The notes beneath the pieces are model-generated. The model searched no databases and had not been told where the DNA came from. It was given only the letters and a program-made list of their open reading frames with translations. A stretch of DNA of 64,000 nt from assembly GCA_963704645.1 (NCBI GenBank), contig OY969926.1:128001-192000 (forward strand), given 5' to 3'. Below, one piece after another: positions 2,852-47,500 of the stretch. Position 1 is the first letter of the stretch; each line of letters starts with the position of its first letter. The stretch comes from an uncultured bacterium. GTDB lineage: Bacteria > Patescibacteriota > JACMRA01. The position numbers and the translations under genes were made by a program.

Positions 2852-3523
2852 TTACCATTCCCCAATAGAAATATTTTCCTTACCCTTTATATTTTGAATA
2901 TAGCCTAGCCATTTTTTATCGCCATAGCTTGTACTGGTTGGAATACAGGCTACAAAAGATGTGGTGTAACCTGGTGAATTATAATATTCGTTATACATAC
3001 CTTGTTGGTTAACAGAAGATGGGGTGTAATTTGGTATATTGAAATATTCTTTAATAGTATTGTTGGTTTGCTGAATAATACTTTTCTTTTCTTTTAAGCT
3101 TAAATTGTCCCAAATACTTTTGTCTTTAACATAAATTAAAGCATCTCCAGAATATGGAACTTCTTCAGGCTTGTACTCATTGGCATCTACCAATAGGAAA
3201 TTATATTTAGAGAGAGAAGAATTAATAATTTTATTTAGTTCGGGCGGAATTGGCGTTCGCATCGAATCATATTCAGACAATTTATATTTGCATATTGGAC
3301 TTAACTTAAAGGGCATGCCTCCACCTTCACTAGTTAAATAACTTATGTTAGTACTTATTCCAGCAAACTGTGGATCAAATAATATCTGGTAAGTTTCGTA
3401 GATTTTTATTCCCCCTCTATATAACAATATACTTGCAGGAATAATTAGTATAGCAATAAGTATTTTTAATTTTAAGCTAAGTTTTTTAAGGTTAGAAAGT
3501 TTGAATTTATTGAAAAAGGTCAT
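2852..3523 (-). CDS. membrane-anchored hypothetical protein, tandem paralog 2 (immunity-like)
   Basis: N-terminal TM; closely similar to 3589..4206 (YLTSEGGGMPFKLS, KSIWDNLSLKEKK, YGDKKWLGYI, SIGEW). Confidence 0.8.
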   Translation of the reverse strand: MTFFNKFKLSNLKKLSLKLKILIAILIIPASILLYRGGIKIYETYQILFDPQFAGISTNISYLTSEGGGMPFKLSPICKYKLSEYDSMRTPIPPELNKIINSSLSKYNFLLVDANEYKPEEVPYSGDALIYVKDKSIWDNLSLKEKKSIIQQTNNTIKEYFNIPNYTPSSVNQQGMYNEYYNSPGYTTSFVACIPTSTSYGDKKWLGYIQNIKGKENISIGEW

Positions 3524-3588
3524 ATTTTTAATTTTGTTTATAGGAGTTGCAACACCTTTTTAATTAGCTCAACATTTTCACAAAACAC

Positions 3589-4206
3589 CTACCACTCCCC
3601 AATAGACATTCTTTCTTTTCCTTTGAAGTTTTCAATGTAGCCTAACCATTTTTTATCTCCGTAACCCCTACTGTTTGGAGTGCAAGTAACAAATGATGTA
3701 GTATAACTTGGTTTATTAAAATATTCTTTTATATTATTATTAGTTTGTTGAATCATATCCTTTTTTTCCTTTAAACTTAAATTGTCCCAAATACTTTTAT
3801 CTTGAACATAAATTAAAGCGTCACCTGAATTTATATTTGTAGGTATAATATAAGTATTTGCATTTACCAACAAAAAATTGTATTTAGTAAGAGAGAGATT
3901 AATTTTTGTAGTTAACTCTTTAGGTATGGCTAAGCTTGTAGAAGTATATTCATTAAGGTCTACAATACACAAATCACTTAGCTTAAAAGGCATGCCCCCT
4001 CCTTCACTAGTTAAATAATCTATGTTGGTACTTATTCCAACAAACTCAGGATCAAATAATATCTGGTAAGTTTCGTAGACTTTTATTCCCCCTCTATATA
4101 CTAATATGCTTACAGGAATTATTAGTATTGCAATAAGTATTTTTAATCTTAGGCTAAGTTTAGTGAAGTTGATTAGTCTAACTTTTTTAAAGAAGGGTGT
4201 AGTCAT
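3589..4206 (-). CDS. membrane-anchored hypothetical protein, tandem paralog 1 (immunity-like)
   Basis: Starts 2 nt after the stop of the large PA14 protein; paralog of 2852..3523. Confidence 0.8.
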   Translation of the reverse strand: MTTPFFKKVRLINFTKLSLRLKILIAILIIPVSILVYRGGIKVYETYQILFDPEFVGISTNIDYLTSEGGGMPFKLSDLCIVDLNEYTSTSLAIPKELTTKINLSLTKYNFLLVNANTYIIPTNINSGDALIYVQDKSIWDNLSLKEKKDMIQQTNNNIKEYFNKPSYTTSFVTCTPNSRGYGDKKWLGYIENFKGKERMSIGEW

Positions 4207-4208
4207 AT

Positions 4209-7200
4209 TTAATTTTTTAATCTGGTTGGAACTGTGTTACAAGTCACATCATCCCAATAAAGTCTATCGATGGGAACTCGAGGTACATACTCATTACAGA
4301 CGTTATGTGTCTTACTAAATCTATTTTTGTATTCATTGGCAAAAGTTGAAACGCTTACTCTGTTTTCTCTTAGATCTTTGCCTAATTTTATGGCTTCATA
4401 ACTAGAAAATAAATCCATCCAGCTTGAACCATTCTCTGCAGGGTCTGGTAAAGTCCTATAAAACTGTGGAGGTACAAAAGTATTCTTTTTATAAGCTTCG
4501 TGGAACATTAACCACCATTCATTGGATCCAAATAAAGGTAATGGTAAGTTTACTCCAATAAAAGGATAACCAACCGAGTTTTGGCTATCACCTGCATACG
4601 CAAAGTTTATTCCTCCACCAGTATTATGCCATGCAAGGTTAGATTTAGTCCCCTCATCATCAAAAATATAATTGTAACCAGAAGAGCCATGAAATTCCAC
4701 TATATGGTAGGCTTCTTCATATACTGTACCTGCATTACACCCATCTATACTTATTATGCAATTTTTACCGGGTCTATTGGCAAAAACTGTTCCTAGATCG
4801 TAAATAAATCTGTCCTTGTTATTGGTACTTTGCCAAGATAGAGCAATAAAATTAGCACTTGCTACGTAAGCTTCCATTGTATTTTTACAGTAGGAATTCA
4901 TTAAAGTTCTTTCATTTAAAACAAATACAGCATTTAAAAACAATCTTTTTGGCTCATCTGAAGTATACCAATTAGAGTTTTTCTTATTATTTAGAAAAGA
5001 TTGTAGGTAGTTTAAATCTTGGCAGGACAGAAAAGTTGTTGATGGGTTTCGACCTGTCGTTGCTGTCCATATTGCTAAAACCATTTTAGCATGAAACTGA
5101 ATTTCCGTATCACACGATGCTGTACACTCTCTCTTTGCTAAATAATTATACAACCCATCATTAATTAAACTTTCTGCCTGCGAAAGATTCTTATTAAATC
5201 TCCCCCAAACACTACCCCACCCACCAATCTTAACATTGCCCGCTCTGTCTGTAATATTTATACTAAACTCAATATTCTGAGAGCTAGATACTTTGGTAAG
5301 ATCAATGTTGGCTGAATAAAGATAATCCACATTGTCGTTGTATTCTCTACCAAGGAATAATAATTTACTGTCGTAGTAGGCGTAGAAATCTACATAGCTT
5401 ACAAGACTTTGTGGTGTAGATAAATCCCAAGCCTCAGCTTTTACTGTAAAGTTGTTTCCTGTAATTGTTTGATAGTTTGCACTTGGGTTTATTATTCTTC
5501 CATCAGGTTTTATACTGTCTGTATACTCCCACCTCAAAGCAAAAGCGGCCTGTCCAGCATCTTCCCTAAACTTAACTTGAAGAAGATACCAACCTTCAGT
5601 AAGATATCTGTCTGTTCTGGTTTCAGAGCAACACCCAGGCTGATTAATTATCCTAGTTCCGTCTAATATAATTTCAGTTCCGTCATCAGCCTTTGAAATG
5701 AAAGTGAATGTGGAGGCCGGGAAATAATGCATTTTGGTAAAGTAACCAGAAAAGTTATCTGTTGGAAGGGAGCTTATTCCTGAAGGTGAGTTTAGGTAAG
5801 TTCCTGAAAAAGAATTTATTCCTCCCTTAGTTAAGTTTACAGTAGGATTATTATTCCCCCAGTTATCATCCCAAAAGTCCCCTAGTCTGGTTACTGGTTT
5901 TACAGGTATTCCTGTTTGATATTTGTTAGGGTAGAATTCTACACACCAGTCTGAGAAGTTATTATTGGTTTTACATGCTAGTTCCCAAGAAAGGGTTAGT
6001 TTAGCACTTCCTGTTTTTTCTTGATAGTATACTTCCATTACGTGCCAGCCTGTTGGTAGATCTATTCTGGTGTCAGTATCTGCGGCTGGGTTTTCCCATT
6101 TATCTATTACAATGTTTCCATTAATAACTAATTTCATTCCATCGTCGTAACCTGTATAGAATTTGTAATGACCTGATTCAAACCATTGTTTTTTACTAAA
6201 TTTAGCTGAGAAGTAATCAGAGGGGGTTACTCCTCCAGGGTTACCATAACCCCAATCTTTGTTAATGTAATCTGTTCTTCCAAGAGAATCTCTAGCAGGA
6301 TAATAGTTTTCAGAATAAGACATTATTCCAGAATAAGGATTGTTGTTGTAATATTGAGCACACCAGTTATCATAGGGAAGTTCTGGGTAGTTACATTCGT
6401 TGTATAAGGGAGTTCCTGTTATGGCTAGGGGTTGGACTGTGGGGGTGGTGGTAGCAAGGGAAGTGGTTGGAGCAAGTGTAGTTTTAGTCACTAAGGATTG
6501 AGTGGCTTCAGAAGGCGGAATTATTGGAGTTTGAGTTACTGGTTGAGGAGTATCAATAATTACTGGAGAAGTTACTGGAACCTGTGGAAGTGCTGGTTTA
6601 GGTGTAGGTATTGTAGGCCTAATAGGAGTTTGAGGCTCTGGTCTTTTCCATTCTTCCAGTCTCTTTTGTTTTTCTTGATGGGTTAGCGGAGTTTCTGGCT
6701 GAGTTGGAGGAATTGTTGGCTGAGGAGTTGGCGTAGTAGGTGGCTCTGGATTACTTGGAGGCTCAGGTTCGCCCTCACCTTCACAAAGTCCCTTCTCTAC
6801 TTTCAGAACAATGTCGTTAAAGTCATAGTCTAACCAATCTTCAAAAGAAAGTGAGTATGCATTGTTTCCTAGGTTTACTTGTTTAACTCTGCTGGAATCT
6901 GTAGAAAGAATGGTTTTAGGTGACTGTGAGTAGAAGGGAGTTATTTTAAGAATTAGATCTTGGCCTTGGGTGAAGTTACCAAGTGTAGGAGAGGAATTTA
7001 TTCCTCCTGTGGCATTTTGAACATCTGAAACCTTCTTGGTTGTTAAATCATTGTAGTTATCTGAAATTAGTTTGTCTGAACCGTCTTCGTTTACTCCTAC
7101 AAGGTAAAGTTTACCTCCTGCTCCATCATTACTTATTCTTGAAATGTAATAACAGCCTGTGCTTTGGATGCTTAGTTTGTTTGATGGAGTCTCAGGTGGT

Positions 7201-7622: not shown

Positions 7623-8423
7623 CTACTTAAAATTCTGATAAATTATACCTGCAAAAAAGAAAAATAAATTTATTATCACTACCACCCCACCCGTGGCTAA
7701 ATTTAAATAGAATGAAAGTATAATTCCAAACCAAATTGATGAAACTGAAAACAATACAGCTAACAAAATAGTTTTAACCAAATCTAATTTAAATAATTGG
7801 GCGGAAATTACTGGAACAACCATTAAAGTTGATATTAACAAAACTCCAATGGAAGTAATGCCCAAACTTATAATAACAGCGCAAAGTGTAATAAATATGT
7901 AATTTATTTTTTCAACCTCAACTCCTTCCGAGGTGGCCAAATCTTCGTCTAAGCTAATTAAAAGCATCTGATTTCTAATAAAGAAAAGTGTAATTAGTAT
8001 AGCTGGCACGGCCACTGATAAAACAATTACATCCTGAAGACTAACAAAATTTAAACCTCCAAATAAATAACTAAATAATTTACCACTACCCTGATTTGCA
8101 AAATTCAACAAAATGGCTGTTAAACCAAGACTAGCAGATAAAGTTACAGCCAAAGCGGTTTCTCCAAAAAGCTTTTTGGATTGTCTAATTTTTTCTATAC
8201 CAAGACTTACCAAAATTGTACTTAAAATAGTAACTGGAAGAGTGGCTAAACCAGTAATTATACTTGTTAAAATACCTACCAAAGAAACATGCGAAAGAGT
8301 ATCAGCTAAATTGGAATATCTTTTTACAACTAGAAAAATTCCCAGGACTGGTAAAACTAAACCAAGAATACTTCCAGCAATAAGTGACCTAATTATAAAT
8401 TCGTATTGGAAAATTTCAAGCAT
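7623..8423 (-). CDS. znuB: Zn/Mn ABC transporter permease
   Basis: ADTLSHVSLVG, YLFG, GVLLISTLMVVP; multiple TM helices. Confidence 0.9.
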   Translation of the reverse strand: MLEIFQYEFIIRSLIAGSILGLVLPVLGIFLVVKRYSNLADTLSHVSLVGILTSIITGLATLPVTILSTILVSLGIEKIRQSKKLFGETALAVTLSASLGLTAILLNFANQGSGKLFSYLFGGLNFVSLQDVIVLSVAVPAILITLFFIRNQMLLISLDEDLATSEGVEVEKINYIFITLCAVIISLGITSIGVLLISTLMVVPVISAQLFKLDLVKTILLAVLFSVSSIWFGIILSFYLNLATGGVVVIINLFFFFAGIIYQNFK

Positions 8424-8441
8424 ATTTATTCAGTGTTTTTA

Positions 8442-9173
8442 TTAGTGGTGATGGTGCATGTGCTGTCTAGAGCTTCCATAAATATCCTCAAAATCTGAGC
8501 TGTTAGTAAAACTTTTAACTGACTGGTGAATAATAAGTTTTTGATTTAAACACCAAACTAAATTGGAAGACTTAGCCACTGTTTCCAGTTCATGAGTGAC
8601 TAAAATTATAGCAACTCCCTGTTCAAAAATATCTTCTAGAATTGAATAAAATTCTGCCTGATTTTGAACATCCACGCCAGATATTGGCTCGTCTAAAATT
8701 AAAAGTTTTGGTTTAGATATCAAGCTTCTTGCCAACCACACTCGCTGTCTTTGTCCAACCGAAAGCTGGCTAATTAACTTATTTTTAAAATCTAAAATAC
8801 CAAGTTTAACTAAAATATTATTCACCCATTTTTCGTCTTTATTTTTAAATAAATTAGTGCCTAAAATATCATTTACACTTGCTGGGAAGGACAGACTAGT
8901 TTGGTTTAATCGCTGAGGCAAATAAGCAATTTCACCCCTGTTTTTAAATTTAGATATTGGCAGACCAAACACTTCTAAATTTCCAGAAAAGTTAGTTTCT
9001 ATACCTGTTAAAATTTTAACCAGGGTGGTTTTACCCGCTCCATTAGGACCAGTGAGAATACAAAAATTATCTTGCTCTAAATTAAAGTTTAAATTATCTA
9101 GAACAATGTCATCTCCATATTTAATGGAAAGGTTTTGAGCAGATAAGATAGGTTTTTTTTCACTATTATTCAC
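8442..9173 (-). CDS. znuC: Zn/Mn ABC transporter ATP-binding protein
   Basis: GPNGAGKTT, LSVGQRQR, LLILDEP, His-rich C-terminus HMHHHH. Confidence 0.9.
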   Translation of the reverse strand: MNNSEKKPILSAQNLSIKYGDDIVLDNLNFNLEQDNFCILTGPNGAGKTTLVKILTGIETNFSGNLEVFGLPISKFKNRGEIAYLPQRLNQTSLSFPASVNDILGTNLFKNKDEKWVNNILVKLGILDFKNKLISQLSVGQRQRVWLARSLISKPKLLILDEPISGVDVQNQAEFYSILEDIFEQGVAIILVTHELETVAKSSNLVWCLNQKLIIHQSVKSFTNSSDFEDIYGSSRQHMHHHH

Positions 9174-10098
9174 ACTTTAAAGCTATTTTAAGATTATTTA
9201 AGTTGCTTTTGTATATTGAAATATAGTCTTCGTTGTTTTTAATTTGCTCATCAGTAATTGTTTCAATTGGGTTTAATTCTAAAGTTTTTGTATTAGTTTC
9301 AAGGCTAATTGTATCTGTAATTTTATTGTTGGCCGAGCTTTCCAAAAAAATGTATTCTAAATTGTTCTGTTTAATTGTATTTATAATTTCACTAATTTGC
9401 TGGCTACTTGGCTCATCTTCTGGGCTTAAACCAGTAATTGGAATAATTTGTATATTGTATTTCTGGGCAAAATAACTATAGGCATCATGCGAGACTATAA
9501 TTTTATTAAATTTACATTTAGCTAAACTAGTTTTGGTTTCAATATCTAATAGATTTAGTTTTGTAGAGAATGACAATTGATTGGCTGGAAATAAATCTTT
9601 TTTGTCTGGAAACTTTGCTGCTAATTGGTCTGACAATTTTGAACTAAATTCTGAAACTAAGGTTGGATCTAGCCAGAAATGGGGATCTTTTGCCTCCTCT
9701 GCATCTATCAAATTAATGCTTTTTGATACAGAAATAGTGGCAACACCATTTTTAGAAATATCAGTTGCTACTTGTTCAGCCCAGGTGTCAATTTCTTCAC
9801 CTAAATACACAAAAGCAGCACCAGAATTTAAGTTAGCTATTTCCCTAGCTGAAGGTTCAAAATCGTGCGGTTCAACCCCCGCTGGAACAATATTAATAAC
9901 TTCAAAACTATCTCCAGCTACTTGCTTTGTAATATATTGAAGAGGATAAAAGGTAGTGTATATTTTTCTCTTGTTCTTATCGTCCCTACCAGCCAAATTA
10001 TTGTTTGCAGTAAACAACATACTAGTAAAGAAACCTGCAGCAAGAATAGCTACAATGGTTAATATAATTATAATGTTTTTTTTGGAGAATATTTTCAT
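9166..10098 (-). CDS. znuA: Zn ABC transporter substrate-binding protein
   Basis: GVEPHDFEPS, DPHFWLDP, HDAYSYF motifs; N-terminal TM anchor. Confidence 0.9.
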   Translation of the reverse strand: MKIFSKKNIIIILTIVAILAAGFFTSMLFTANNNLAGRDDKNKRKIYTTFYPLQYITKQVAGDSFEVINIVPAGVEPHDFEPSAREIANLNSGAAFVYLGEEIDTWAEQVATDISKNGVATISVSKSINLIDAEEAKDPHFWLDPTLVSEFSSKLSDQLAAKFPDKKDLFPANQLSFSTKLNLLDIETKTSLAKCKFNKIIVSHDAYSYFAQKYNIQIIPITGLSPEDEPSSQQISEIINTIKQNNLEYIFLESSANNKITDTISLETNTKTLELNPIETITDEQIKNNEDYISIYKSNLNNLKIALKCE

Positions 10099-10234
10099 AG
10101 GTAATATATTTTATAATTGGTGGTATAATTGAACAATTATTTTTTTAGTTTGAATTTTAGATCCAAATTAGTAAACAAATGTTATTGTAAAATTTTTAGG
10201 TAAGGCTAAATTATGAGAGTTTAAATCTTTATAT

Positions 10235-10675
10235 TTATGAGCATTTTTGGCATAACCCTCTTAAAATTATTAAACTTTCTTCAACTACAAAATCGGGTAT
10301 GTTTTTATAGGTTTCAGAAATATCTTGCCAGCTCCAAGTTGGTGTAACTGCTTTGACTTGAAAACATTTTTTACAAACCAAATGCTGCTGCTTTCCGTCT
10401 CCGTAAATTTTGTAAAATTTATGCTCACCGTCTAAATCTATACTGGTAATAAGTTTGTTTTTTTCTAAAGTTTCTAATTCACGGTAAATAGTAGTTTTGT
10501 TTGGCCAAAATTCGTAACCTTGCAATTGATGCAATATCTCTTTTACTGTTATTGGTTTTCCCTTCATCAAAATTTTTAAAACGGCCTGTCTTAGTTTTGA
10601 ATCTCGGCACCCAACTTTGCGTAATTGAATTTCAATTTGTTCTACTTTCTCTAAAATTTGTTCTGTTTTAGACAT
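10235..10675 (-). CDS. zur: Fur-family regulator, probably Zur
   Basis: TTIYRELETL, HLVCKKC and CQKC zinc sites; directly upstream of znuACB; ATG at 10675. Confidence 0.8.
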   Translation of the reverse strand: MSKTEQILEKVEQIEIQLRKVGCRDSKLRQAVLKILMKGKPITVKEILHQLQGYEFWPNKTTIYRELETLEKNKLITSIDLDGEHKFYKIYGDGKQQHLVCKKCFQVKAVTPTWSWQDISETYKNIPDFVVEESLIILRGLCQKCS

Positions 10676-10686
10676 CAAAATTATAT

Positions 10687-10701
10687 TGCAACCTGGTTGC
10701 A
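10687..10701. promoter_or_regulatory. 7-1-7 palindrome, candidate Zur/Fur box in the zur promoter
   Basis: TGCAACC-T-GGTTGCA between minus-strand TTGACA (10705-10710) and TATAAT (10680-10685). Confidence 0.55.
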
Positions 10702-10885
10702 GTTTGTCAAGTAAAATCACACTGTGTCAGCACTTACTTAACATATTAAATGTCTGGTAAAACCTCTAATATTTCGTATTTTTACGTGAAAATTGAGACG
10801 TAAACTTTAAACATGATGAATTACTATATGAAAGGATAGTTAATATATTTTGACATTTCAAACCAAGTAACATTGCCTAGGAAAT

Positions 10886-14042: not shown

Positions 14043-14062
14043 AGCCCTTCGGGGCTTTTTTT
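14043..14062 (+). terminator. intrinsic terminator after hsp20
   Basis: AGCCCTTCGGGGCT hairpin followed by T-run. Confidence 0.75.
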
Positions 14063-14582
14063 ATAATGCCAAAGTTCTAATTTTACCTTCTCCAAGTGGA
14101 GCATAAAAACTTACAGGCTTACCTTCGTCATCTGTGGAATGCCATTCAAACCACAATTTACTTTTATCATGGTTTTTAGATATTTCCTTTATAAAATCTT
14201 CAAGACTAATTTCGTTTGTATTTAAAGTTTTCTGCATTAGTTTAACAATTTTATAAACCAAATTGTATTTTGGACTATTGTGTTCGTTGCTATAATGCCT
14301 TTCAGGGCTATCCCACCTTCCAAAAAACTTTCTATCAGTATAGCCACCCCGAATTAAAAAACTTGCATCTAATATTGTTATTTTTTTTAAATCTGAAATG
14401 CAATCTTTAACTACCTCTTCCATTTTTTCCATTAATAAATCATTAAAATTTTCAATATACCATTTTCTTTCCTTTATTAATCGATCAATATCATTTTGAT
14501 CTAAAAATAATATGCCTGTTAAATAATCTTCCACTCCTGTGTTAAAATAAGCAGAACTAGGCATTATAAAAAGTGAGTACAT
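14061..14582 (-). CDS. hypothetical protein, FYAP-family member B1 (cassette copy 1)
   Basis: C-terminal NHDKSKLWFEWHSTDDEGKPVSFYAPLG shared with three other ORFs. Confidence 0.8.
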   Translation of the reverse strand: MYSLFIMPSSAYFNTGVEDYLTGILFLDQNDIDRLIKERKWYIENFNDLLMEKMEEVVKDCISDLKKITILDASFLIRGGYTDRKFFGRWDSPERHYSNEHNSPKYNLVYKIVKLMQKTLNTNEISLEDFIKEISKNHDKSKLWFEWHSTDDEGKPVSFYAPLGEGKIRTLAL

Positions 14583-14598
14583 AAATTTATAAGTTTAA

Positions 14599-15141
14599 TT
14601 AATTATATCTTTCCAATTGTTCTAAACCCTGCAAGCCACTTTCACCATACGGAGCATAAAATCCAACAAGCTCGCCGTTCTCATCATTAGTTTCAAAATT
14701 AATCCACAACTCTTTTTTCTCGTGATTTAATAAAATTCTATCTATATAGTCTTTCATTGAAATATTGTTGGTCAATAAGTTTGTTTGTATAGCTTTTAAA
14801 ATGTTTTTAGTAACAGCATTTACAGCCTGCAAAACCATATTCTGAACTTTATCAAATTCACCACTAGTAACAACGTCTTTTAGAAAATCTTCATCGAACT
14901 GTATTTTTCTTAAAATAAAACTAGAATCCATAGCTACAATAACTTTAACCTGATCAGAAAAACCAGTTTCTATAGGGCTAATTTTTTTTAACAACAAATC
15001 CTTCAATTCTAAATTATTTTCCCACCTACCTTGTTGTTTTAGCTCTTCAATTTCTTTGTCCCAAAATAGCAGTCCAACCATAAAGCTTTGGCTGTTACCA
15101 CTTATTATATGGAAACTGGTTGATTTAAAAAATGCGTGCAT
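14599..15141 (-). CDS. hypothetical protein, FYAP-family member A1 (cassette copy 1)
   Basis: About half identical (hand count, ungapped 180 aa) to 37126..37668; ATG at 15141. Confidence 0.8.
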   Translation of the reverse strand: MHAFFKSTSFHIISGNSQSFMVGLLFWDKEIEELKQQGRWENNLELKDLLLKKISPIETGFSDQVKVIVAMDSSFILRKIQFDEDFLKDVVTSGEFDKVQNMVLQAVNAVTKNILKAIQTNLLTNNISMKDYIDRILLNHEKKELWINFETNDENGELVGFYAPYGESGLQGLEQLERYN

Positions 15142-15162
15142 GCTAAGCAAATACTTAAGTCA

Positions 15163-15277
15163 TTCTTGACATTTGTCAAAATAAAATGCAAATATATATA
15201 TATCATACTATTTTATATATGTTTAGCAAGTTCTAAATTATTATAATTAGTTACAAAAACCGATTTTTTGGAGGAAA
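15163..15277. repeat. conserved divergent spacer of cassette copy 1 (repeat of 38279..38391)
   Basis: TTCTTGACATTTGTCAAAATAAAATGC...TATCATACTATTTTATAT...AAAACCGATTTTT..GGAGGAAA; contains palindrome TTGACA-TT-TGTCAA. Confidence 0.85.
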
Positions 15278-15283
15278 ACCAAA

Positions 15284-15622
15284 ATGCCTTGGGGTAAATG
15301 GACTGAAGGAGAGAATATTGATTCTAAAGTTAAGATTGACCTTAACAATGGAGACATGACTACTTTAACAAGAAGTGTTGAGCATCGTGGAAACAAAGAT
15401 GACTACCCTCACATGAGTGTCACTGTTGGTCTAAACGGTGATTTAAAAAATGCTCATTGGTCAGAGTCTGAGCATGGCCCTAGAATTGGAACAGAGGGTG
15501 AAAACCCTGAATGGAGTAAAAACCCGACTGTGGAAAAAAGTGGATTTAGCAGGGATACTCCTAGTATCTATGATTCACATAATTTTGAAAAAGGTGGAAG
15601 TGAGTATTCTGGTTGGGATTAG
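15284..15622 (+). CDS. small His-motif hypothetical protein C1 (cassette copy 1)
   Basis: GGAGGA SD 8 nt upstream; NGDMTTLTRxVEHRGNKDDYPHMS shared with 38397..38720. Confidence 0.85.
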   Translation: MPWGKWTEGENIDSKVKIDLNNGDMTTLTRSVEHRGNKDDYPHMSVTVGLNGDLKNAHWSESEHGPRIGTEGENPEWSKNPTVEKSGFSRDTPSIYDSHNFEKGGSEYSGWD

Positions 15623-15681
15623 TTAATTTCCACACATTTTTTGATTTAAAATTAAATAGTTATTCAAAATAACAAATATTT

Positions 15682-15704
15682 GCTCATTAATTTGAGCTTT
15701 TTTT
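15682..15704 (+). terminator. intrinsic terminator after C1
   Basis: GCTCA-N6-TGAGC followed by T7. Confidence 0.6.
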
Positions 15705-15781
15705 ATTTTTGAAAATATTTTATGGATGGTTGACATTACTTCAACTAAGACCAACCTTTAAATAGTATAACACATAAAAAT

Positions 15782-17298: not shown

Positions 17299-17332
17299 TT
17301 TACAGGTATCAAATAATTGAGACTGTCACCCT

Positions 17333-18412
17333 TGTATATGTCATAAATTTCAGTGACAGAATTTAAATCTTCTTTTAGATTATTTCTGTTAAATTTTTAA
17401 CAACATATATTCTAACATAATATGCGTTTAAATGATAATACTTTAACCAAGAATTACCTTAGACATATGAAACAATTAGTTCAAGAATATGAATTAATTA
17501 AAACAAGGAAACATCCTAGATATGTATTTGTAAATGAATTCTACAAAGCAAATAATATAACTAGACAAAACTTCATCAAATATTACAATAGGTATAAATT
17601 AGTTTCTATGGATAGTAGTTTAATTCCAAAGAAAAGAGGGAGAAAGTTTGGTAGTTTAAAAAGTATTCCTTTCATACAGAATAAGATTATTGAACTTAGA
17701 AACCAAGGATTTGGTAGATATGAGATACACGATTTCCTTTTACCTAAGTATGGTAAATATACTCCTTCACCTACGACTATTTACAATATACTATTAAAGA
17801 AAGGATTGAATAGATTAGATCCAAGAGTAATTCAAACTAACAAAAGAAGAATCATTAAAGATAAAGCAGGAGAATTAGGCCATATGGATTGCCACAGACT
17901 AGCTAAAGGAATACTGGAGGGTGAAAAGAATGAATACTTTCTACTAAGCTTAACAGATGACTTTACTAGAATAGTTATGACCATACTAATACCTAATCTG
18001 CAAGCTCTAACAGTTATGCTTTATACTCAAAGATTATTAGCAGTATTCAATAGATGTTACAACATAGATTTTCAAAGTATATTAACAGACAATGGACCCG
18101 AATTTGGAAGGAAAGAAACAAAAGAAGAAAACAAACAAAACCATCCATTTGAAAGATTACTGTTAGAATACAACATTAAGCATAAGTACACTAGAGCCTA
18201 CAGGCCACAAACCAATGGTAAAGTAGAAAGATTCTGGAGAAGTTTAGAGGAAGAATTACTTAGAGAGCAAGTATACCCAGATAAAGAAAGTTTAGAAGAA
18301 GAATTATTTGAATATTGTTGCTACTTCAACCATATTAGAAGACATCAAGGTATTGGTAATATTACTCCCTATGAGAAACTTAATTCTGTCACTGAATAAG
18401 TTGACATATACA
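17333..18412 (+). mobile_element. complete IS481-family insertion sequence (1080 bp)
   Basis: TGT...ACA ends; 31-bp TIRs TGTATATGTCA-N5-TTCAGTGACAGAATT (17333-17363, 18382-18412); 5-bp target duplication ACCCT (17328-17332, 18413-18417). Confidence 0.9.
17422..18399 (+). CDS. IS481-family DDE transposase
   Basis: GHMD, LTDNGPEF, PQTNGKVERF, FNHIRRHQG; stop codon inside right TIR. Confidence 0.92.
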   Translation: MRLNDNTLTKNYLRHMKQLVQEYELIKTRKHPRYVFVNEFYKANNITRQNFIKYYNRYKLVSMDSSLIPKKRGRKFGSLKSIPFIQNKIIELRNQGFGRYEIHDFLLPKYGKYTPSPTTIYNILLKKGLNRLDPRVIQTNKRRIIKDKAGELGHMDCHRLAKGILEGEKNEYFLLSLTDDFTRIVMTILIPNLQALTVMLYTQRLLAVFNRCYNIDFQSILTDNGPEFGRKETKEENKQNHPFERLLLEYNIKHKYTRAYRPQTNGKVERFWRSLEEELLREQVYPDKESLEEELFEYCCYFNHIRRHQGIGNITPYEKLNSVTE

Positions 18413-18491
18413 ACCCTGAATTTATTTCAGAGTCTAAACTGGATAATATTAACACATCTTTATTGAAAAAGATACTCCTTTATTTCAAAGT

Positions 18492-20811: not shown

Positions 20812-21237
20812 CTATATTACTGTCCAATCTTCCAATTTCAAATTGGCTATATGTTTAAAGTCTTGGTCATTGCTTACAATTGTATAGCCAAATTCTAAAG
20901 CTGTCGCGGCTGCCATTAAGTCAAAATCTCCAACTGAAAAACCTTTTTCTAATGTTTCAACTTTAATTTTTATATATTTTTCTGCAATTTCTTTTGTATA
21001 ATTAATTATCTTTAAAGTGTCTAAATGTTTTTTTGTTTCATTGAATATTCTTTTTTTGTACTCAGGACCATATTTACTTATACCTTTTTGAATTCCAAAC
21101 AAAATCTCTTGATAAGTAATTATAGATAAATACAGGTCTTCTCCTGTACTAAATTTTCTCATATTTATTTTAATATTTTCACCTTCAGAATCTTCTTTTA
21201 TAATATGATTAATAATATTTACATCCAAAAGATACAT
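20812..21237 (-). CDS. vapC: PIN-domain VapC-like toxin
   Basis: MYLLDVNII, SIITYQEILFG, FDLMAAATALE, IVSNDQDF, LEDW; true start ATG 21237. Confidence 0.88.
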   Translation of the reverse strand: MYLLDVNIINHIIKEDSEGENIKINMRKFSTGEDLYLSIITYQEILFGIQKGISKYGPEYKKRIFNETKKHLDTLKIINYTKEIAEKYIKIKVETLEKGFSVGDFDLMAAATALEFGYTIVSNDQDFKHIANLKLEDWTVI

Positions 21238-21250
21238 AATAAATAAATAT

Positions 21251-21267
21251 AGTAATATCGTATTACT
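21251..21267. promoter_or_regulatory. palindromic operator-like box 1 (vapC side)
   Basis: AGTAATA-TCG-TATTACT perfect inverted repeat just inside minus-strand TTGACA (21270-21275). Confidence 0.6.
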
Positions 21268-21361
21268 TATGTCAAATAAAATATGCTTATATATCAAATA
21301 TTTACCTACTTTATTATCTGTATTGGACAAAAATAGTTTTTTGTTTTAGTATTATTTTAAC

Positions 21362-21378
21362 AATAATATTGTATTACT
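21362..21378. promoter_or_regulatory. operator-like box 2 (RHH side)
   Basis: AATAATATTGTATTACT, 15/17 identical to box 1, abutting the ATG at 21380. Confidence 0.55.
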
Positions 21379-21379
21379 T

Positions 21380-21646
21380 ATGCAACCAACTATTTCTCTA
21401 AAACTTGATTCAGATATGCTAGACGGACTAAAAAAAATGTCTAGGGCTCGCAGTATTTCTATGTCCAGTTTAGCCCGCGAGGCTTTTAGTGAAAAGCTAA
21501 ATTATAAGACTAAAAAACAGATCGAGCCAGAAATTTTCAAACTATTTGGTATTGCAAAGACAACAGAAGAAAAAAAATATATTAGCGATGTATTTCAAGA
21601 AATAGAAAACAGAAAGAAAAATCCTAATGTCGGTAAAAAATTCTAA
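21380..21646 (+). CDS. ribbon-helix-helix (CopG-like) protein, probable antitoxin
   Basis: TISLKLD..LKKMSRARSISMSSLAREA RHH, then KLFGIAK-type antitoxin tail. Confidence 0.75.
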   Translation: MQPTISLKLDSDMLDGLKKMSRARSISMSSLAREAFSEKLNYKTKKQIEPEIFKLFGIAKTTEEKKYISDVFQEIENRKKNPNVGKKF

Positions 21647-37125: not shown

Positions 37126-37668
37126 CTAGTTATACTCCTCTAGTTTTTCTAAACTAGATACCCTACCCCTACCATACGGTGCGTAAAATTCAACTTTATT
37201 TCCGTGCTCGTCTTTACTTTCCCAATTAATCCACAAATCTTTTTTGTCATGGTTTAAAGAAAGCCTTTCCATATAATCTTTTAAGCTTATATCATGAGTT
37301 TTTAAATTTTCACTAATACTTTGGATAATTGTTTTTGTTGCCATGTTAACAGCTTGTATTATGGCGTTATACAACTCAGCAGGATTTTCTTGATTGCTTT
37401 GTTCTTTTAAGAAGTCTGGGTCTATTTCTATTTGATGAATTAAAAAGTTGAAATCCATTGCAACTAAGACTTTAACTTTATCTGCAAAACCAAGAATTAC
37501 AGGGCTAGTCTCTTCTAGTAATAATTGTTTAAGTTTTAACTGATTGTCCCACCTACCTTCAGCCTTCAGTTTATCTATTTCTGAGTCTAAAAATAGTAAA
37601 CCAACTACATAGTCTTGATAACGGTTGTTTATAATGTATCTTCCAAAAGATCTAAAAAAAGTTTGCAT
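37126..37668 (-). CDS. hypothetical protein, FYAP-family member A2 (cassette copy 2)
   Basis: LNHDKKDLWINWESKDEHGNKVEFYAPYG; counterpart of 14599..15141. Confidence 0.8.
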   Translation of the reverse strand: MQTFFRSFGRYIINNRYQDYVVGLLFLDSEIDKLKAEGRWDNQLKLKQLLLEETSPVILGFADKVKVLVAMDFNFLIHQIEIDPDFLKEQSNQENPAELYNAIIQAVNMATKTIIQSISENLKTHDISLKDYMERLSLNHDKKDLWINWESKDEHGNKVEFYAPYGRGRVSSLEKLEEYN

Positions 37669-37727
37669 ATTCCTGAATTTATTATTTTGATTTAATTTTT
37701 TGTACTGAAATGAGTTTATAATTTTAT

Positions 37728-38255
37728 TTAAGCAGCAAGCGTTGTAACTTCAATATTATAATTTGGAGCGTAAAATTCTATTTTATTTTGGTTTTCATCC
37801 AAAGCTTCCCAATACAACCAAGTTTTACTTTTGTCAGTTTTTTTGGCAATTTTATTAATAAATTCTGCCATACTAATTTCGTTCGTTTGCAGCTCTTTCT
37901 GAATAGACAGTATAGTTTGGTTTATTGCAGTTTTAATTGCTAACTTTTGCTCTTCAGTTTCAACAGTCCAACCTCCTGGTTTATAATCTGGTTGAAAATA
38001 TTTACTATCTAACTGTGTTTGGTAAATCATAAAGTTATAATCCATCATAATGGTTATTCTGATTTCCGATAAAAACCTTTTAATGTTTTGATTTGATGCA
38101 GAAACAAATAAGTTATACAAATAACTTTCTCGCTTGGTATAAGCACCGTCGTCTATTTCATTAATTTCTTTATCAAAAATTGCTAAAATAATTGAATACC
38201 GATCTTCTTTTTCATCAACTAGGTGGGTGTTAACATTTCTAAACAGACAGTACAT
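37728..38255 (-). CDS. hypothetical protein, FYAP-family member B2 (cassette copy 2)
   Basis: MYCLF start, TNEISM..FI..I...DKSK.W..W..DE....FYAP, ends TLAA like B1 (TLAL). Confidence 0.8.
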   Translation of the reverse strand: MYCLFRNVNTHLVDEKEDRYSIILAIFDKEINEIDDGAYTKRESYLYNLFVSASNQNIKRFLSEIRITIMMDYNFMIYQTQLDSKYFQPDYKPGGWTVETEEQKLAIKTAINQTILSIQKELQTNEISMAEFINKIAKKTDKSKTWLYWEALDENQNKIEFYAPNYNIEVTTLAA

Positions 38256-38278
38256 AATCAGTCTTATAAGTTAACTTT

Positions 38279-38391
38279 TTCTTGACATTTGTCAAAATAA
38301 AATGCCAATATATATATCATACTATTTTATATGTGTTTAGTTAATTCTAAATTGCATTAAGTTAGTTACTAAAACCGATTTTTGGAGGAAA
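38279..38391. repeat. conserved divergent spacer of cassette copy 2 (repeat of 15163..15277)
   Basis: Same TTGACATTTGTCAA palindrome, TATCATACTATTTTATAT block and AAAACCGATTTTTGGAGGAAA leader. Confidence 0.85.
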
Positions 38392-38396
38392 TGACG

Positions 38397-38720
38397 ATGC
38401 CCTGGGATAAATTTTGGAGTAAAGGAGATCATGTTGATTCTAAAGTTGGCATTGATCTGAGCAATGGGGACATGACGACATTAACGAGAGGTGTGGAACA
38501 TCGTGGAAACAAAGATGATTACCCTCACATGAGTTTCACCGTTGATATCCATGGTCAAGTCACCAATGCCCACTATTCAAACTCTAAACATGCTTCTGAT
38601 AGAGTGGGAACTGATTCTCAAGAATGGAGAAAACCAGAATATGATTCTAACCACAATACTGATTATTCTGGACATGAAACAGACTATGGTGCAAGTAAAG
38701 GGTTGGGTGATAAATATTAA
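38397..38720 (+). CDS. small His-motif hypothetical protein C2 (cassette copy 2)
   Basis: GGAGGA SD 7 nt before ATG 38397 (MPWDKFW); paralog of 15284..15622. Confidence 0.85.
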   Translation: MPWDKFWSKGDHVDSKVGIDLSNGDMTTLTRGVEHRGNKDDYPHMSFTVDIHGQVTNAHYSNSKHASDRVGTDSQEWRKPEYDSNHNTDYSGHETDYGASKGLGDKY

Positions 38721-38785
38721 AAGTACATATCACTGAGTCTTTTAGGTTTCCAATATCCAACAAAAGTAGCAAGTCTACAATTTCT

Positions 38786-38813
38786 GCCTAAGCTTTAAGT
38801 TTAGGCTTTTTTT
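38786..38813 (+). terminator. intrinsic terminator after C2
   Basis: GCCTAAGCT-TTA-AGTTTAGGC followed by T7. Confidence 0.7.
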
Positions 38814-38921
38814 ATTTCACAATTTTAGTTTACGTGCTTTTTATTAAATCTAAAATTCCCCCCCCACAAAAAATCCCCCATAATCTTGACAAAGCAAACC
38901 CTGCTGGCTAATTACTTTAAC

Positions 38922-42675: not shown

Positions 42676-42834
42676 GTAGTTTTTATCACTTTGGCCATTG
42701 GATTTAGTTGTTCCGACAACAGAGTCTAGGGCGTCGTGGAAGTAGAAAGTAGTTTGGCCAGATAGTTTGTCTAAAGAGAACAATATTGACTGGTTTGTGG
42801 AATCTCTAAATATGTCTGTTTCCTGTTTGTTTTG
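42676..42834 (-). repeat. orphan Rhs-core fragment, near-identical copy of 45498..45656
   Basis: QNKQETDIF..TNQSILFSLDK.SGQT.FYFHDALDSVVGTTKSNGQSDKNY in both places. Confidence 0.9.
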
Positions 42835-44528: not shown

Positions 44529-47500
44529 TTAATTAATTTTTGTAGTCCAGCTAGCATTGATCGTCATATTTTCATTTCCACCAATAACGTCGTGATACCA
44601 ATACCCCATCACACCTGTGATTTGATTATAATACTTGGATCTACCTTCAGCAGGTCTAAGGTCTAATAAATCACTAAAACTGTAATTTATTGATATGCAG
44701 CCTTCTTTAGTAACATTTACATTGGCATATACAGTTGTATTTCTTATTAACCAAGTTAACTCATTAAAACCTACATTCCATGTTTCAGCATGCCTTAAAG
44801 GGTTGTTATTGTTCAATGAATACCAGTTTTCGTTAATAGAACTCCATCTGTCTCCACCTAATCCTATCCGCTTACCATATAAAACATTACCATCTACAAT
44901 TTCATAATAATCAAATTCAAAACTATTATTACCATAGTTAGTATTTGCTTTAGCAATAGAAATTAATTCTTGTTCATAAGCTATCATAGCTGGATCATTC
45001 TTAACATTTTCAAGGACACTACCTTTTAGATAAATAGAATCTTTATTCATAATTGACAAAGTTGTAGCCTCAAGAACATTTTCATATGGTAAACCACCAG
45101 GGCTATTATTAACTTCATCGTCAAAGTAGGAGCCCACACCTTCTCTAAATCCATCATATGTGTTCTTTATGGCTGCACCTACTTGAGAAGTATTACTTAC
45201 TGTTCCCTCCACAATCCAATTGACTTGGTCTTCCCCCCAATAGTACCCATAATAATCCCTATAGGTCATCGGACTGTTTTTTACATACCCATATCTATGT
45301 AAACTTTGTGGTGATTTTATTTGCCCTCTATAACTATCTTGTTGCAGCCAGGTTCCTGTAGTTGGATCGTAGGCTCTACTGTATAATTCATATACGTTTA
45401 AATTATCATCGTATTCTTGATTGGTGTAGGTAAAGTTGTTGTGAGGAGAGGTGAAATTACCATTTTGTGGTTCTATTCCTCCAAAGTCTCCGTATCTGTA
45501 ATTTTTATCGCTTTGTCCATTGGATTTAGTTGTTCCGACAACAGAGTCTAGAGCATCGTGGAAGTAGAAACTGGTTTGGCCAGATGGCTTGTCTAAAGAG
45601 AACAATATTGACTGGTTTGTTGGATCACTAAATATGTCTGTTTCCTGTTTGTTTTGCATGTTTTTAAACATGATTGGGTCTAGATTGTCGTAGGCATATT
45701 GCGTGGCTTTTACTCCACCATTCCCTACTTTTGGATCGTAGGTTTTAACTAATCTTCTACCTATTCCATCATAAGCCATGGTAGTCTGAGATCGTTGATT
45801 AAAGCTAGCAGAAGTTGTTGGGTTAGTTTTAGCGTTTCCTTGGTAAGCCTGACTACTTGTTAATCTATTTTCATAGTCATAGGTGTAAGACTCTCCCTGC
45901 ACTGCTGGACCACTTGGACCTGGGAATCTTTTATCGATACGGTTCCCATTTTTATTATAGGTAAAGTTTACTGATTTAAGGTTTTTATCGGCATTTTTGA
46001 TATTGCCTTTACTATCTACAGATAGATAATCTAAAGCTTTATCAAGTTTTACCTGCAGACTATTGGTGATACCGTCAGAATCAATTTGACCGCCAGATCT
46101 CGCAGTAGATATAGCTTGTTTTAGAGCTTGTATCTTAGATGTAGCTTCGTCAGTATTTAAACTACCAGTTTCCAAATCAACAATTAAACTAGAAGTTTGA
46201 GAAATCAGATCTTGTGCAGTAGCAGATGTAATATGCTTACCATTTTGAGCTGAAAGTTCGCTAAGAAGTGCATAGATTGCTTGATTTACTGACTCAGTTA
46301 TTACAGATTTTGTATTTCCTGTTGAGCCACCTGAACCATTTCCCTGATTTGAAGTTTGTGAAGATGAAGAATTTGAAGTTGAGTTAGAATTATTTCCGTT
46401 TCCTTTGTTACCAGAATTGCCATTAGCATTACTGTTTGCCATTAGCATAGAGCTACTTTGCTGAACAGTTTGTAGCCCTGCTACACTTGAATTTGGACTT
46501 TTGTTGTTACCTTTAGCATACTTTGTTTCCTCTAAAACATTTAGCATTCTGTTGGTGTTGCTATAGCTATAGGTTTGGGTTAGTTCATCAAAAGGTTGAT
46601 TGGTGGAGTTGTTGTTGGTAATTGGTTGACTCTGCTGATCATTTGTAACGTATTTCAAACGGTTTCCAACTGCATCGTAACTATATGTACTATAAATATT
46701 TTCAGAATCAGCAGATTTTGTAAGTCTACGAAGTGGATCATACTCATATTTTGTAGTAACCTCACTTGGCTTCCTCCATGCATATGTGGCTGACTGACTA
46801 ACACGCTGACTAACTTTGTCATATTCATATTTAAATGAAGAATTGTCCTTGCCACCTGTTTCCAAATTTTGTATGGAAAGTACTCGATTTACTTTGTCGT
46901 AAGCACTTTGTGTATAAGTCCCATTAGCAAAAGCAACTTTGGTAGTATTTCCAACTTTATCTCTTGAGTATACTGTATTTCCCGTATCTGAAGCACTAAC
47001 ACCCGCTAACCAGTTATTTTTCTGGTAGGTATAGCTTACTTTTTTACCATCTGGATAAGTAAGGCTAGTTTTATTACCAACTTTATCATAACTATAATTT
47101 ATATTTCTACCAAAATCATCTACAACTTTAGTAATTCTATTTAGTTTATCCAAAGTCCAAGATGTCTGACCCAAATTGTCTTTCATGTTTGTCCTGTTGT
47201 TGTTAGGATCATAATTGAAAGTAATTGCAAACCCATTAGTTTTGGCTTTATCCAAGACCCCAGATGGGTTAAATATTGCAGTAGACGAACTTGGTTTTTG
47301 GTATTTGATATCTTTAAGTTGATTATCTGGATAGTAACTATAGTTTGTAATTTGATTTTCAGCATCAACTCTGCTGATACGATTTCCAACCTTATCATAT
47401 TTATATTGCCAAGTATTATCATCGGCGTCTTTTTCAGTAATTATTCTATTTAAAGAGTCAAAAATAAAGTTAGAGTCATTATTGTTAGCATCGGTGATTT

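Follow-up and report, generated by a model that had tools for sequence, protein, structure and literature searches.

We describe a small accessory gene cassette that is present in two diverged versions in a 64,000-nt stretch of contig OY969926.1 (positions 128,001 to 192,000; the whole stretch is called the window below) from an uncultured bacterium of the Patescibacteriota, whose genome (G000) is a single contig of 1,272,640 bp with 33% G+C. Each cassette contains two adjacent paralogous genes, A and B, whose products share the residues F-Y-A-P and are here called FYAP proteins, and a divergently oriented gene, C, encoding a small hydrophilic protein with conserved histidines. The cassette is a real, self-contained module: C stands divergently beside an FYAP pair in all three loci with readable DNA, i.e., copies 1 and 2 of the window and L011, a metagenomic locus of 4,439 bp that is the sole such locus outside G000. 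The initial annotation of this DNA, made from the sequence alone, had proposed such a divergent three-gene cassette, and that proposal holds. What is new is a remotely YbaB-like paralog pair, a swapped gene order, two cassette lineages, evidence of insertion or deletion, and a reading of the shared palindrome as a promoter element. A few keyword searches of the literature found no description of the cassette, and in the same type of search YbaB was not mentioned in papers on Patescibacteria, the Candidate Phyla Radiation, or Saccharibacteria among the matches listed.

Copy 1 occupies positions 14061 to 15705 of the window, and copy 2 occupies positions 37126 to 38815, 23,116 nt away. In copy 1, the minus strand carries B1 in the promoter-distal position (14061 to 14582; 173 amino acids, ending in FYAPLGEGKIRTLAL) and A1 in the promoter-proximal position (14599 to 15141; 180 amino acids). 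A spacer, the common control region (15142 to 15283), follows with a palindrome, a (TA)n run, and a GGAGG sequence, and the plus strand then carries C1 (15284 to 15622; 112 amino acids) and a terminator-like hairpin with a T-run (15682 to 15705; hairpin at 15682 to 15697). The start of A1 was set at the ATG at 15141 by alignment with A2 and with P0007 to P0013; the listed TTG start at 15150 would add three codons. In copy 2, the minus strand carries A2 (37126 to 37668; 180 amino acids; promoter distal) and B2 (37728 to 38255; 175 amino acids; promoter proximal), and beyond the spacer (38256 to 38396) the plus strand carries C2, with its ATG at 38397 (38397 to 38720; 107 amino acids), and a terminator-like hairpin with a T-run (38786 to 38815; hairpin at 38786 to 38806). 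The arrangement that had been reported for copy 1, with the pair running leftward from the spacer and C1 and its terminator running rightward, and its recurrence about 23 kb away were thus located as described. The claim that the unit recurs whole stands for the three genes, the spacer, and the terminator, but not for the order of the paralogs: the gene that adjoins the spacer is of the A type in copy 1 and of the B type in copy 2. As an observation on the edges of copy 1, the 11-nt string GCTTTTTTTAT is found at both of them (14046 to 14056 and 15695 to 15705), where it closes the Hsp20 terminator (left edge) and the C1 terminator (right edge); the repeat may be a mere matter of terminator T-runs, or it may be a trace of insertion of the cassette.

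A1, A2, B1, and B2 have 19 invariant columns in common, F-Y-A-P among them, in agreement with the shared motif noted from the sequence by the initial annotation, and the approximate identity given there for A1 and A2 was also correct (90 of 180 residues, 50%). B1 and B2 are 30% identical, and A-type and B-type proteins are 23 to 31% identical to each other. The two types also differ at the C terminus, which reads ...LE.YN in the A type and ...TLA in the B type. Across the family, whose members are 173 to 183 amino acids long, the A type is conserved (50 to 73%) and the B type is highly divergent (26 to 33%). Individual proteins of the window have closer relatives elsewhere: B2 is 75% identical to P0009, and A1 is closer to the A protein of L011 (62%) than to A2. 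The C-terminal part (...IS..DFI..I..NHDK..LW..WE..DE.G..V.FYAP) is specific to the family. FYAP proteins are acidic, with a pI (isoelectric point) below 6.2 in 15 of 17 proteins, compared with a pI above 7.9 in 13 of 17 canonical YbaB pieces, and their conserved charged columns comprise 9 acidic and 4 basic positions in an alignment of 13 sequences. Neither A nor B matched an enzyme family, and the earlier suggestion of a precursor-like protein with modifying partners therefore has no support.

The FYAP proteins probably carry, as judged from profile comparisons, a divergent YbaB/EbfC-like core (alpha-beta-beta-beta-alpha, residues ~44 to 124), to which an N-terminal beta region and the conserved C-terminal module have probably been added. 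YbaB_DNA_bd (PF02575) was the Pfam family matched by most FYAP members (7 of 17 at an E value of ≤1; best E value, 3.3e-4). We aligned FYAP profiles by hhalign with a reference alignment of 17 YbaB domain pieces from G000 and its relatives in the phylum, a comparison that is not fully independent because YbaB had been picked from the earlier weak matches. The profile of all FYAP proteins gave a probability of 81% and an E value of 1.2e-5 over 77 columns (FYAP 44 to 123 to YbaB 12 to 88). The A-type profile alone did better (88%; E value, 3.2e-6; FYAP 44 to 124 to YbaB 12 to 85), and the B-type profile alone matched weakly in the same register (25%; E value, 7.9e-4); a control with the C profile gave 1.2% and an E value of 0.044. 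In the reverse direction, a profile made from four FYAP sequences retrieved a canonical 104-amino-acid YbaB protein encoded beside recR in another genome (G090) at an E value of 1.2e-5. The motifs V.V.....G...I..I.ID..F and ..A.N.A.K are common to FYAP and YbaB proteins. The nearest ESM Atlas clusters to A2 were also YbaB, at a low score (0.77) that makes them a lead only. An AlphaFold2 (AF2) model of A1 has strands at residues 65 to 72 and 77 to 82, followed by a long helix at residues 84 to 122. G000 has a separate, canonical YbaB gene at 967511 to 967795 of the genome.

Several results weigh against this relationship and limit what can be concluded from it. A2 scored 19.3 bits (E value, 0.0013) against YbaB_DNA_bd, below the gathering cutoff of 25.5 bits, and no FYAP protein with a printed bit score reached that cutoff. 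Confidence in the A1 model is modest, with a pLDDT (predicted local distance difference test) score of 61.8 overall and its best values, 78 to 86, over residues 60 to 110. The match of this model to the YbaB-family chain 1ybx_B is weak (Z score, 2.6; root mean square deviation, 3.2; 63 residues; rank 41), and fold searches with the model returned nothing at a Z score of 5 (VIA) or at a Foldseek E value of ≤0.001 (best Foldseek E value, 0.3). A sequence search of the PDB with the FYAP profile likewise did not show the similarity to YbaB. We do not conclude, then, that the FYAP proteins are members of PF02575. Two other candidate relationships were discarded. PhzF/DapF/racemase folds headed the VIA list for A1 with a Z score of 4.5, below the noise level of the tool, and a match to histidine racemase was put down to chance. 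Phycobilisome ApcE repeats share a short helix-loop-helix, L..G.IS.kEFi..lAk, with a summed E value of 2.9e-4 and each i-E-value at 5.8 or above, and were judged a motif coincidence. For all six cassette proteins, searches of Pfam, NCBIfam, PHROGs, and PADLOC produced no match that reached the threshold. The initial annotation had recognized none of the protein families; this remains correct for C, and for A and B it is superseded by the remote YbaB/EbfC-like core. Confident matches to known, unrelated families, which would have told against an undescribed module, did not appear, all library matches being below threshold.

C1 and C2 are 57% identical, and their alignment confirmed as invariant the 14-mer VEHRGNKDDYPHMS, NGDMTTLTR, and NAH, as first read by eye. 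C proteins are 100 to 112 amino acids long (100 in L011) and very hydrophilic, with a GRAVY (grand average of hydropathy) score of −1.2 to −1.4. The residues conserved across the four sequences include W3, W6, R30, H34, R35, H43, H58, and W77, together with K38, which is N in the L011 variant; three histidines are thus invariant, and the conserved polar positions are R30, H34, R35, K38, H43, and H58. The tails of C1 and C2 had been called unrelated. They are indeed unalignable to each other, but each belongs to a type that recurs elsewhere: C1 and the L011 protein share W.KNP..KSG.S.DTPS, and C2 and P0003 share RVGTDS.EW.KPEYDS. In the AF2 model of C1, which has low confidence (pLDDT, 42), four strands fall within residues 13 to 60 and the tail is disordered; this region may accordingly fold into a pair of beta-hairpins with an (N)NGD turn in each, a prediction of equally low confidence. 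No family match to C was found in Pfam, NCBIfam, PHROGs, or PADLOC and no usable match in the ESM Atlas. NusA, listed as a relative in a PDB sequence search with the C profile, was rejected at an E value of 1.7. No longer, fused form of C was seen among proteins of 197 to 2,000 amino acids at an E value of ≤0.01, which is weak evidence, and C has no similarity to the RHS protein of the window. The latter, a 2,455-amino-acid RHS-repeat protein at 44529 to 51896, has nine RHS repeat stretches and a DUF6531 domain; a 159-nt piece of the 3′ part of its gene (45498 to 45656) is repeated downstream at 42676 to 42834 with 92% identity and resembles orphan toxin-tip cassettes.

The family is very small. 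G000 has four genes for FYAP proteins and two for C, and no more. Against 5.77 billion clustered proteins, the C profile found 4 proteins (2 of them from the window) and the FYAP profile found 12 (3 of them from the window), and an exhaustive hidden Markov model search of 1.84 billion representatives with FYAP found 9 proteins at an E value of ≤0.001, for a total of about 20 FYAP and 4 C sequences in the billions searched. Among 401 genomes of the phylum, the C profile matched two, G000 and a decayed remnant in G275, and the FYAP profile matched four, with weak matches in the three genomes other than G000 (G166 and G192 at E values of ~9e-4). Of 27 genomes sampled in the order, G000 is the only one with the family; G246, a genome of the same genus that is 86% complete, lacks the cassette. 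No relatives were found in viral contigs, in phage or plasmid records, or, by a pattern scan, in GTDB genome contigs, and a mobile-element origin was set aside on these grounds. The remnant in G275, which belongs to another genus of the family, is a decayed C-like gene on the minus strand at ~1440 to 1660 of L007 (G275:C67), 94 bp from the contig end. It reads MWGRWIN* in one frame and YPHLNVTTNIEGEVTNAHYS... in another, with the HRGNKDD part missing, and no FYAP gene was found in this 76%-complete genome. The order of genes in L011 is ychF (rightward), a B′-like gene (176 amino acids; leftward), an A-type gene (180 amino acids; leftward), the spacer with TTGACAAGTGTCAA, and C (rightward), and the neighbors there are ychF, a secreted 242-amino-acid protein, and enolase. 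Identical contig statistics (three contigs, the longest being 40,291) for P0003, the C homolog named above, and the B-type protein P0009 hint at a possible fourth locus. C homologs usually found apart from FYAP genes would have spoken against the module; the pair was instead present in 3 of 3 readable loci.

The same-genus genome G246 allowed both cassette sites of G000 to be compared with a genome that has no cassette. A gap of 119 bp separates Hsp20 from the homolog of ORF151-ychF in G246, which has both the terminator of Hsp20 and the TTGACA promoter of ORF151; in G000, ~1.65 kb comprising the copy 1 cassette lies exactly between that terminator and that promoter. Copy 2 occupies the gap between ruvA and ftsH, where G246 instead has an open reading frame (ORF) of 255 amino acids resembling a restriction endonuclease and a 113-amino-acid DNA methylase fragment with the motif DPFSGSSTTG (L019 [G246:C31], 5357 to 6772). 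The cassette is therefore an insertion or a deletion, and it behaves like accessory DNA in variable slots. Copy 1 adjoins Hsp20, with znuABC and a Fur-family gene at a distance of 3.3 kb, and copy 2 adjoins ftsH. Because G246 has the same sites without a cassette, the stress-gene neighbors (Hsp20 and FtsH) are incidental.

The two spacers measure 142 bp (copy 1) and 141 bp (copy 2) between start codons, longer than the ~115 bp first given, and are 88.6% identical. They are more conserved than the genes, as had been suspected: the nucleotide identity between copies is 77% for the 5′ part of C and 61 to 65% for the A/B genes, the latter being equal to the baseline of 62% obtained for shuffled sequence with the same aligner. 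At fourfold-degenerate sites in conserved codons of C, 10 of 19 positions are identical between copies, and the spacer therefore changes more slowly than adjoining silent sites. The spacers of copy 1 and L011 are 68% identical. Thus, A1 is nearer to its L011 counterpart while its spacer is nearer to that of copy 2, a discordance which suggests that the spacer has been homogenized within the genome (gene conversion) or is under host-specific constraint. The spacers gave no Rfam match, no consensus RNA structure, and no small ORF conserved between the two, and single-sequence folds had z-scores of −0.15 to 0.28, with the exception of the copy 2 leftward leader (−2.47).

Each spacer contains the palindrome TTGACATTTGTCAA (TTGACA-NN-TGTCAA), at 15166 to 15179 and 38282 to 38295, and no other exact copy occurs in the 1.27-Mb genome. 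L011 retains it as TTGACAAGTGTCAA amid diverged surroundings. With one mismatch allowed, it is not enriched in its own genome (3 matches versus 11 for a reversed control); the third of these sites, at position 776776 of G000, lies inside an ORF and was set aside. The half-site matches a −35 hexamer. Across the 547 TTGACA sites of the genome, A occurs at a frequency of 0.49 at +19, T at 0.54 at +23, and A at 0.51 at +30, so that TTGACA-N17-tAnnnT is the genome-wide −35/N17/−10/start pattern. In copy 1, copy 2, and L011, a hexamer resembling a −10 box (A2 and T6), read by eye, is found 17 to 18 nt from the half-site in five of six cases. Searched with up to one mismatch, the 17-mer TTCTTGACANNTGTCAA had 16 matches in 25 other genomes of the family and 2 in G000 (18 in all), compared with 3 matches for its reversed control in all 26 genomes. 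Moreover, three exact palindromes are present in related genomes that have no cassette (G184 [L047], G129 [L048], and G167 [L052]; sites at ~1501 to 1514), each lying between two divergent ORFs that have no relation to those of the cassette. Back-to-back −35 boxes thus seem to recur as a promoter design in this family, and the initial description of the palindrome in those terms fits both these sites and the genome-wide pattern. Genes found downstream of such outside palindromes include, e.g., an FtsZ-like ORF and an HxlR-like regulator.

Two observations do not sit well with the promoter reading: the leftward −10 hexamer of copy 2, AACTTA, lacks T at position 6, and a strict scan for consensus promoters did not list those of the cassettes. 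It is nevertheless preferable to read the palindrome as a general promoter layout with back-to-back −35 boxes and not as an operator that requires A/B, since it is present between divergent genes in related genomes without the cassette; the same sites weaken the idea of a cassette-specific operator. Two opposed −35 boxes only 2 bp apart would presumably not be usable by two polymerases at the same time. In L011 and copy 1, leftward transcription is predicted to start 0 to 3 nt ahead of the ATG, and both genes lack a Shine-Dalgarno sequence, which suggests that the A/B mRNA may be leaderless or nearly so. C1 is preceded at 9 nt by a GGAGG ribosome-binding site, and the leader of C is predicted to be ~80 nt long.

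To account for these features, we tentatively favor, as possible but short of probable, an explanation in which C has a dedicated binding partner in the acidic, YbaB-fold A/B pair, which would act as its chaperone or neutralizer. Under this proposal, the palindrome would serve as overlapping, opposed −35 hexamers, with both units starting from one RNA polymerase-sized site; the A/B unit would be transcribed as a leaderless or near-leaderless mRNA, and C would be made from an mRNA with the ~80-nt leader and strong ribosome-binding site. A and B would pair via a YbaB-type beta-sheet dimer interface, and the pair would stabilize, hold, or neutralize C, much as EspD and EspH may do with small substrates of ESX-1. 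The conserved A protein would contact the conserved domain of C, and the variable B protein would contact its variable tail. We favor protein handling because A/B are acidic whereas the YbaB pieces of the phylum are basic, because the conserved charges of FYAP proteins are mostly acidic and the conserved polar residues of C are Arg, Lys, and His, because A/B always accompany C, because the contrast between a conserved A and a variable B is mirrored within C by a conserved domain and a variable tail, and because the palindrome no longer needs a DNA-binding protein encoded by the cassette. Against this stand the following. The canonical function of YbaB is DNA binding, and the partners in a stoichiometric complex are usually cotranscribed, not divergent as they are here. 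The argument from complementary charge draws on few sequences. C has no signal peptide, and no secretion system for it is evident; likewise, no WXG100 protein (PF06013) was matched in the genome, for which marker genes indicate a completeness of 87%. A more specific version, in which a YbaB-fold heterodimer restrains C as a chaperone or immunity factor and the unit is switched by mutually exclusive back-to-back promoters, strikes us as unlikely.

The homology to YbaB/EbfC could also be taken at face value, with A/B being a specialized DNA-binding dimer that acts on the palindrome or on DNA generally and represses or balances the divergent promoters and with C being the regulated cargo. Excerpts of two published accounts state that the YbaB family binds DNA as a dimer and that EbfC prefers a short palindrome, GTnAC (PMC2665219, PMC9610160). 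The restriction of the exact 6-2-6 palindrome to the two cassettes of the genome, its persistence in L011 amid divergence, the slow change of the spacer relative to the fourfold-degenerate sites of C, and a weak HTH_61 match of A1 (E value, 0.012) would all be in keeping with such a role. However, the half-site is the −35 consensus, with a −10 signal at N17 genome-wide, and A/B do not seem to be needed for the palindrome, given its position between divergent genes in three related genomes in which no FYAP protein was found. Allowing one mismatch gave no enrichment over the reversed control. Furthermore, in contrast to the YbaB pieces of the phylum, FYAP proteins are acidic and conserve few basic residues, and two regulators of 180 amino acids for one cargo of 110 amino acids would be an odd economy. 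On balance, we regard a DNA-binding role as somewhat unlikely.

A conflict module, i.e., a toxin-antitoxin-like or antiphage unit in which C is harmful and A/B both neutralize it and, as type II antitoxins do, repress the shared promoter, would overlap the binding-partner and DNA-binding explanations, and we consider it quite unlikely. It would fit the patchy distribution (presence in a single genome among 27 in the order and absence from a genome of the same genus), the presence of two copies in one small genome, the occurrence of one copy in a slot that holds restriction-modification genes in a sister genome, the fast divergence of the components, the toxin-like size of C, and the decayed C-like remnant in G275. 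It fits less well with the absence of any match to a toxin, antitoxin, or defense family (PADLOC gave 0 for the six proteins, and Pfam, NCBIfam, and PHROG matches were subthreshold noise), with the extreme hydrophilicity of C, its disordered tail, and its lack of a recognizable enzyme fold, or with the failure to find fused or polymorphic-toxin forms of C or any likeness to the RHS protein. No member was found on the phage, plasmid, or viral contigs searched, and a divergent layout with two large “antitoxins” is atypical. Formally, C and A/B could instead have independent functions and be linked only by a compact bidirectional promoter, with C being a small metal-binding protein or stress hydrophilin rich in His, Asp, Gly, and Tyr. 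The three invariant histidines, high charge, and disordered tail of C, along with the location of copy 1 near Hsp20, znuABC, and a Fur-family gene and of copy 2 beside ftsH, prompt this alternative; we hold it to be improbable. The neighbors are not conserved (those in L011 are different), the Hsp20 site of G246 without a cassette makes the stress-gene context incidental, and the strict co-occurrence of C and the FYAP pair in three of three loci argues for a functional link.

Other features were noted in the window. A zinc uptake operon of the znuA/znuC/znuB type with a Fur-family regulator is located at 7623 to 10720, and no link to C was found. An insertion sequence at 17332 to 18413, with an rve-family transposase gene (17422 to 18399) and 32-nt inverted repeats that are 84% complementary, is directly downstream of ychF in the window, and it is on that side of ychF that the FYAP cassette is found in L011. 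A PIN-domain gene (minus strand) and a ribbon-helix-helix gene (plus strand) at 20812 to 21646 are divergent and form a second small two-part module of the window with a nonoperon layout. Finally, tandem paralogous ORFs encoding 223 and 205 amino acids (2852 to 4206; 76 to 83% nucleotide identity) have no Pfam family and adjoin a gene for a 1,093-amino-acid PA14-domain protein.

The A and B proteins are a variant of a known fold family that is tied to an orphan small protein and has a narrow distribution. To our knowledge, the YbaB/EbfC fold has been described almost exclusively as that of a small, universal nucleoid protein. EspD, EspH, and EspL of ESX-1 hinted that the fold can be reused for protein handling, and an independent, enlarged, and paired YbaB fold accompanying an orphan protein in a reduced genome would, if true, widen that use; it would be the first protein-handling pair of this fold outside the mycobacterial ESX-1 system. 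The cassette would then also be an accessory conflict or effector module of a kind not described before in small-genome bacteria. It would offer a compact three-gene system for probing the YbaB fold beyond its nucleoid role, and its overlapping back-to-back −35 boxes are a simple model of divergent promoters that exclude each other. The scale is limited: the family has only about 20 members among the billions of sequences searched, and it is confined to one lineage known only from metagenomes.

Among known systems, type II toxin-antitoxin modules resemble the cassette in being small accessory units with their own promoter and palindrome, a candidate toxin of ~100 amino acids, and a patchy distribution. 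They differ in that the cassette is divergent and not one operon, has two large partners in place of one small antitoxin, and belongs to no known toxin or antitoxin family. With canonical YbaB/EbfC proteins, the likeness is confined to the central ~80 residues of FYAP proteins, which align with the YbaB core in profile-profile comparison. FYAP proteins are longer (173 to 183 versus ~95 to 120 amino acids), with extra ends, and are acidic, and they occur as a paralog pair beside a small protein and not in a dnaX-ybaB-recR setting. In layout, the FYAP proteins resemble EspD, EspH, and EspL, which are paralogs too. This comparison is by description and concerns layout only: the lineages are unrelated, no type VII context or WXG100 protein was found in the genome with FYAP proteins, and C is predicted to be rich in beta structure and not to form a helical hairpin. 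In the published excerpts, EspD and EspH are ~180 amino acids long and have a central YbaB-like region (residues 65 to 134 in EspD and 66 to 137 in EspH) (PMC6109436), comparable in place to the FYAP core at residues 44 to 124 of 180. The same excerpts present these proteins as proposed cytosolic chaperones of specific partners, some of ~100 amino acids, with EspH binding EspE as a proposed chaperone and EspD proposed to stabilize EspA and EspC (PMC6107294, PMC6109436), the kind of relationship that we tentatively suggest for A/B and C.

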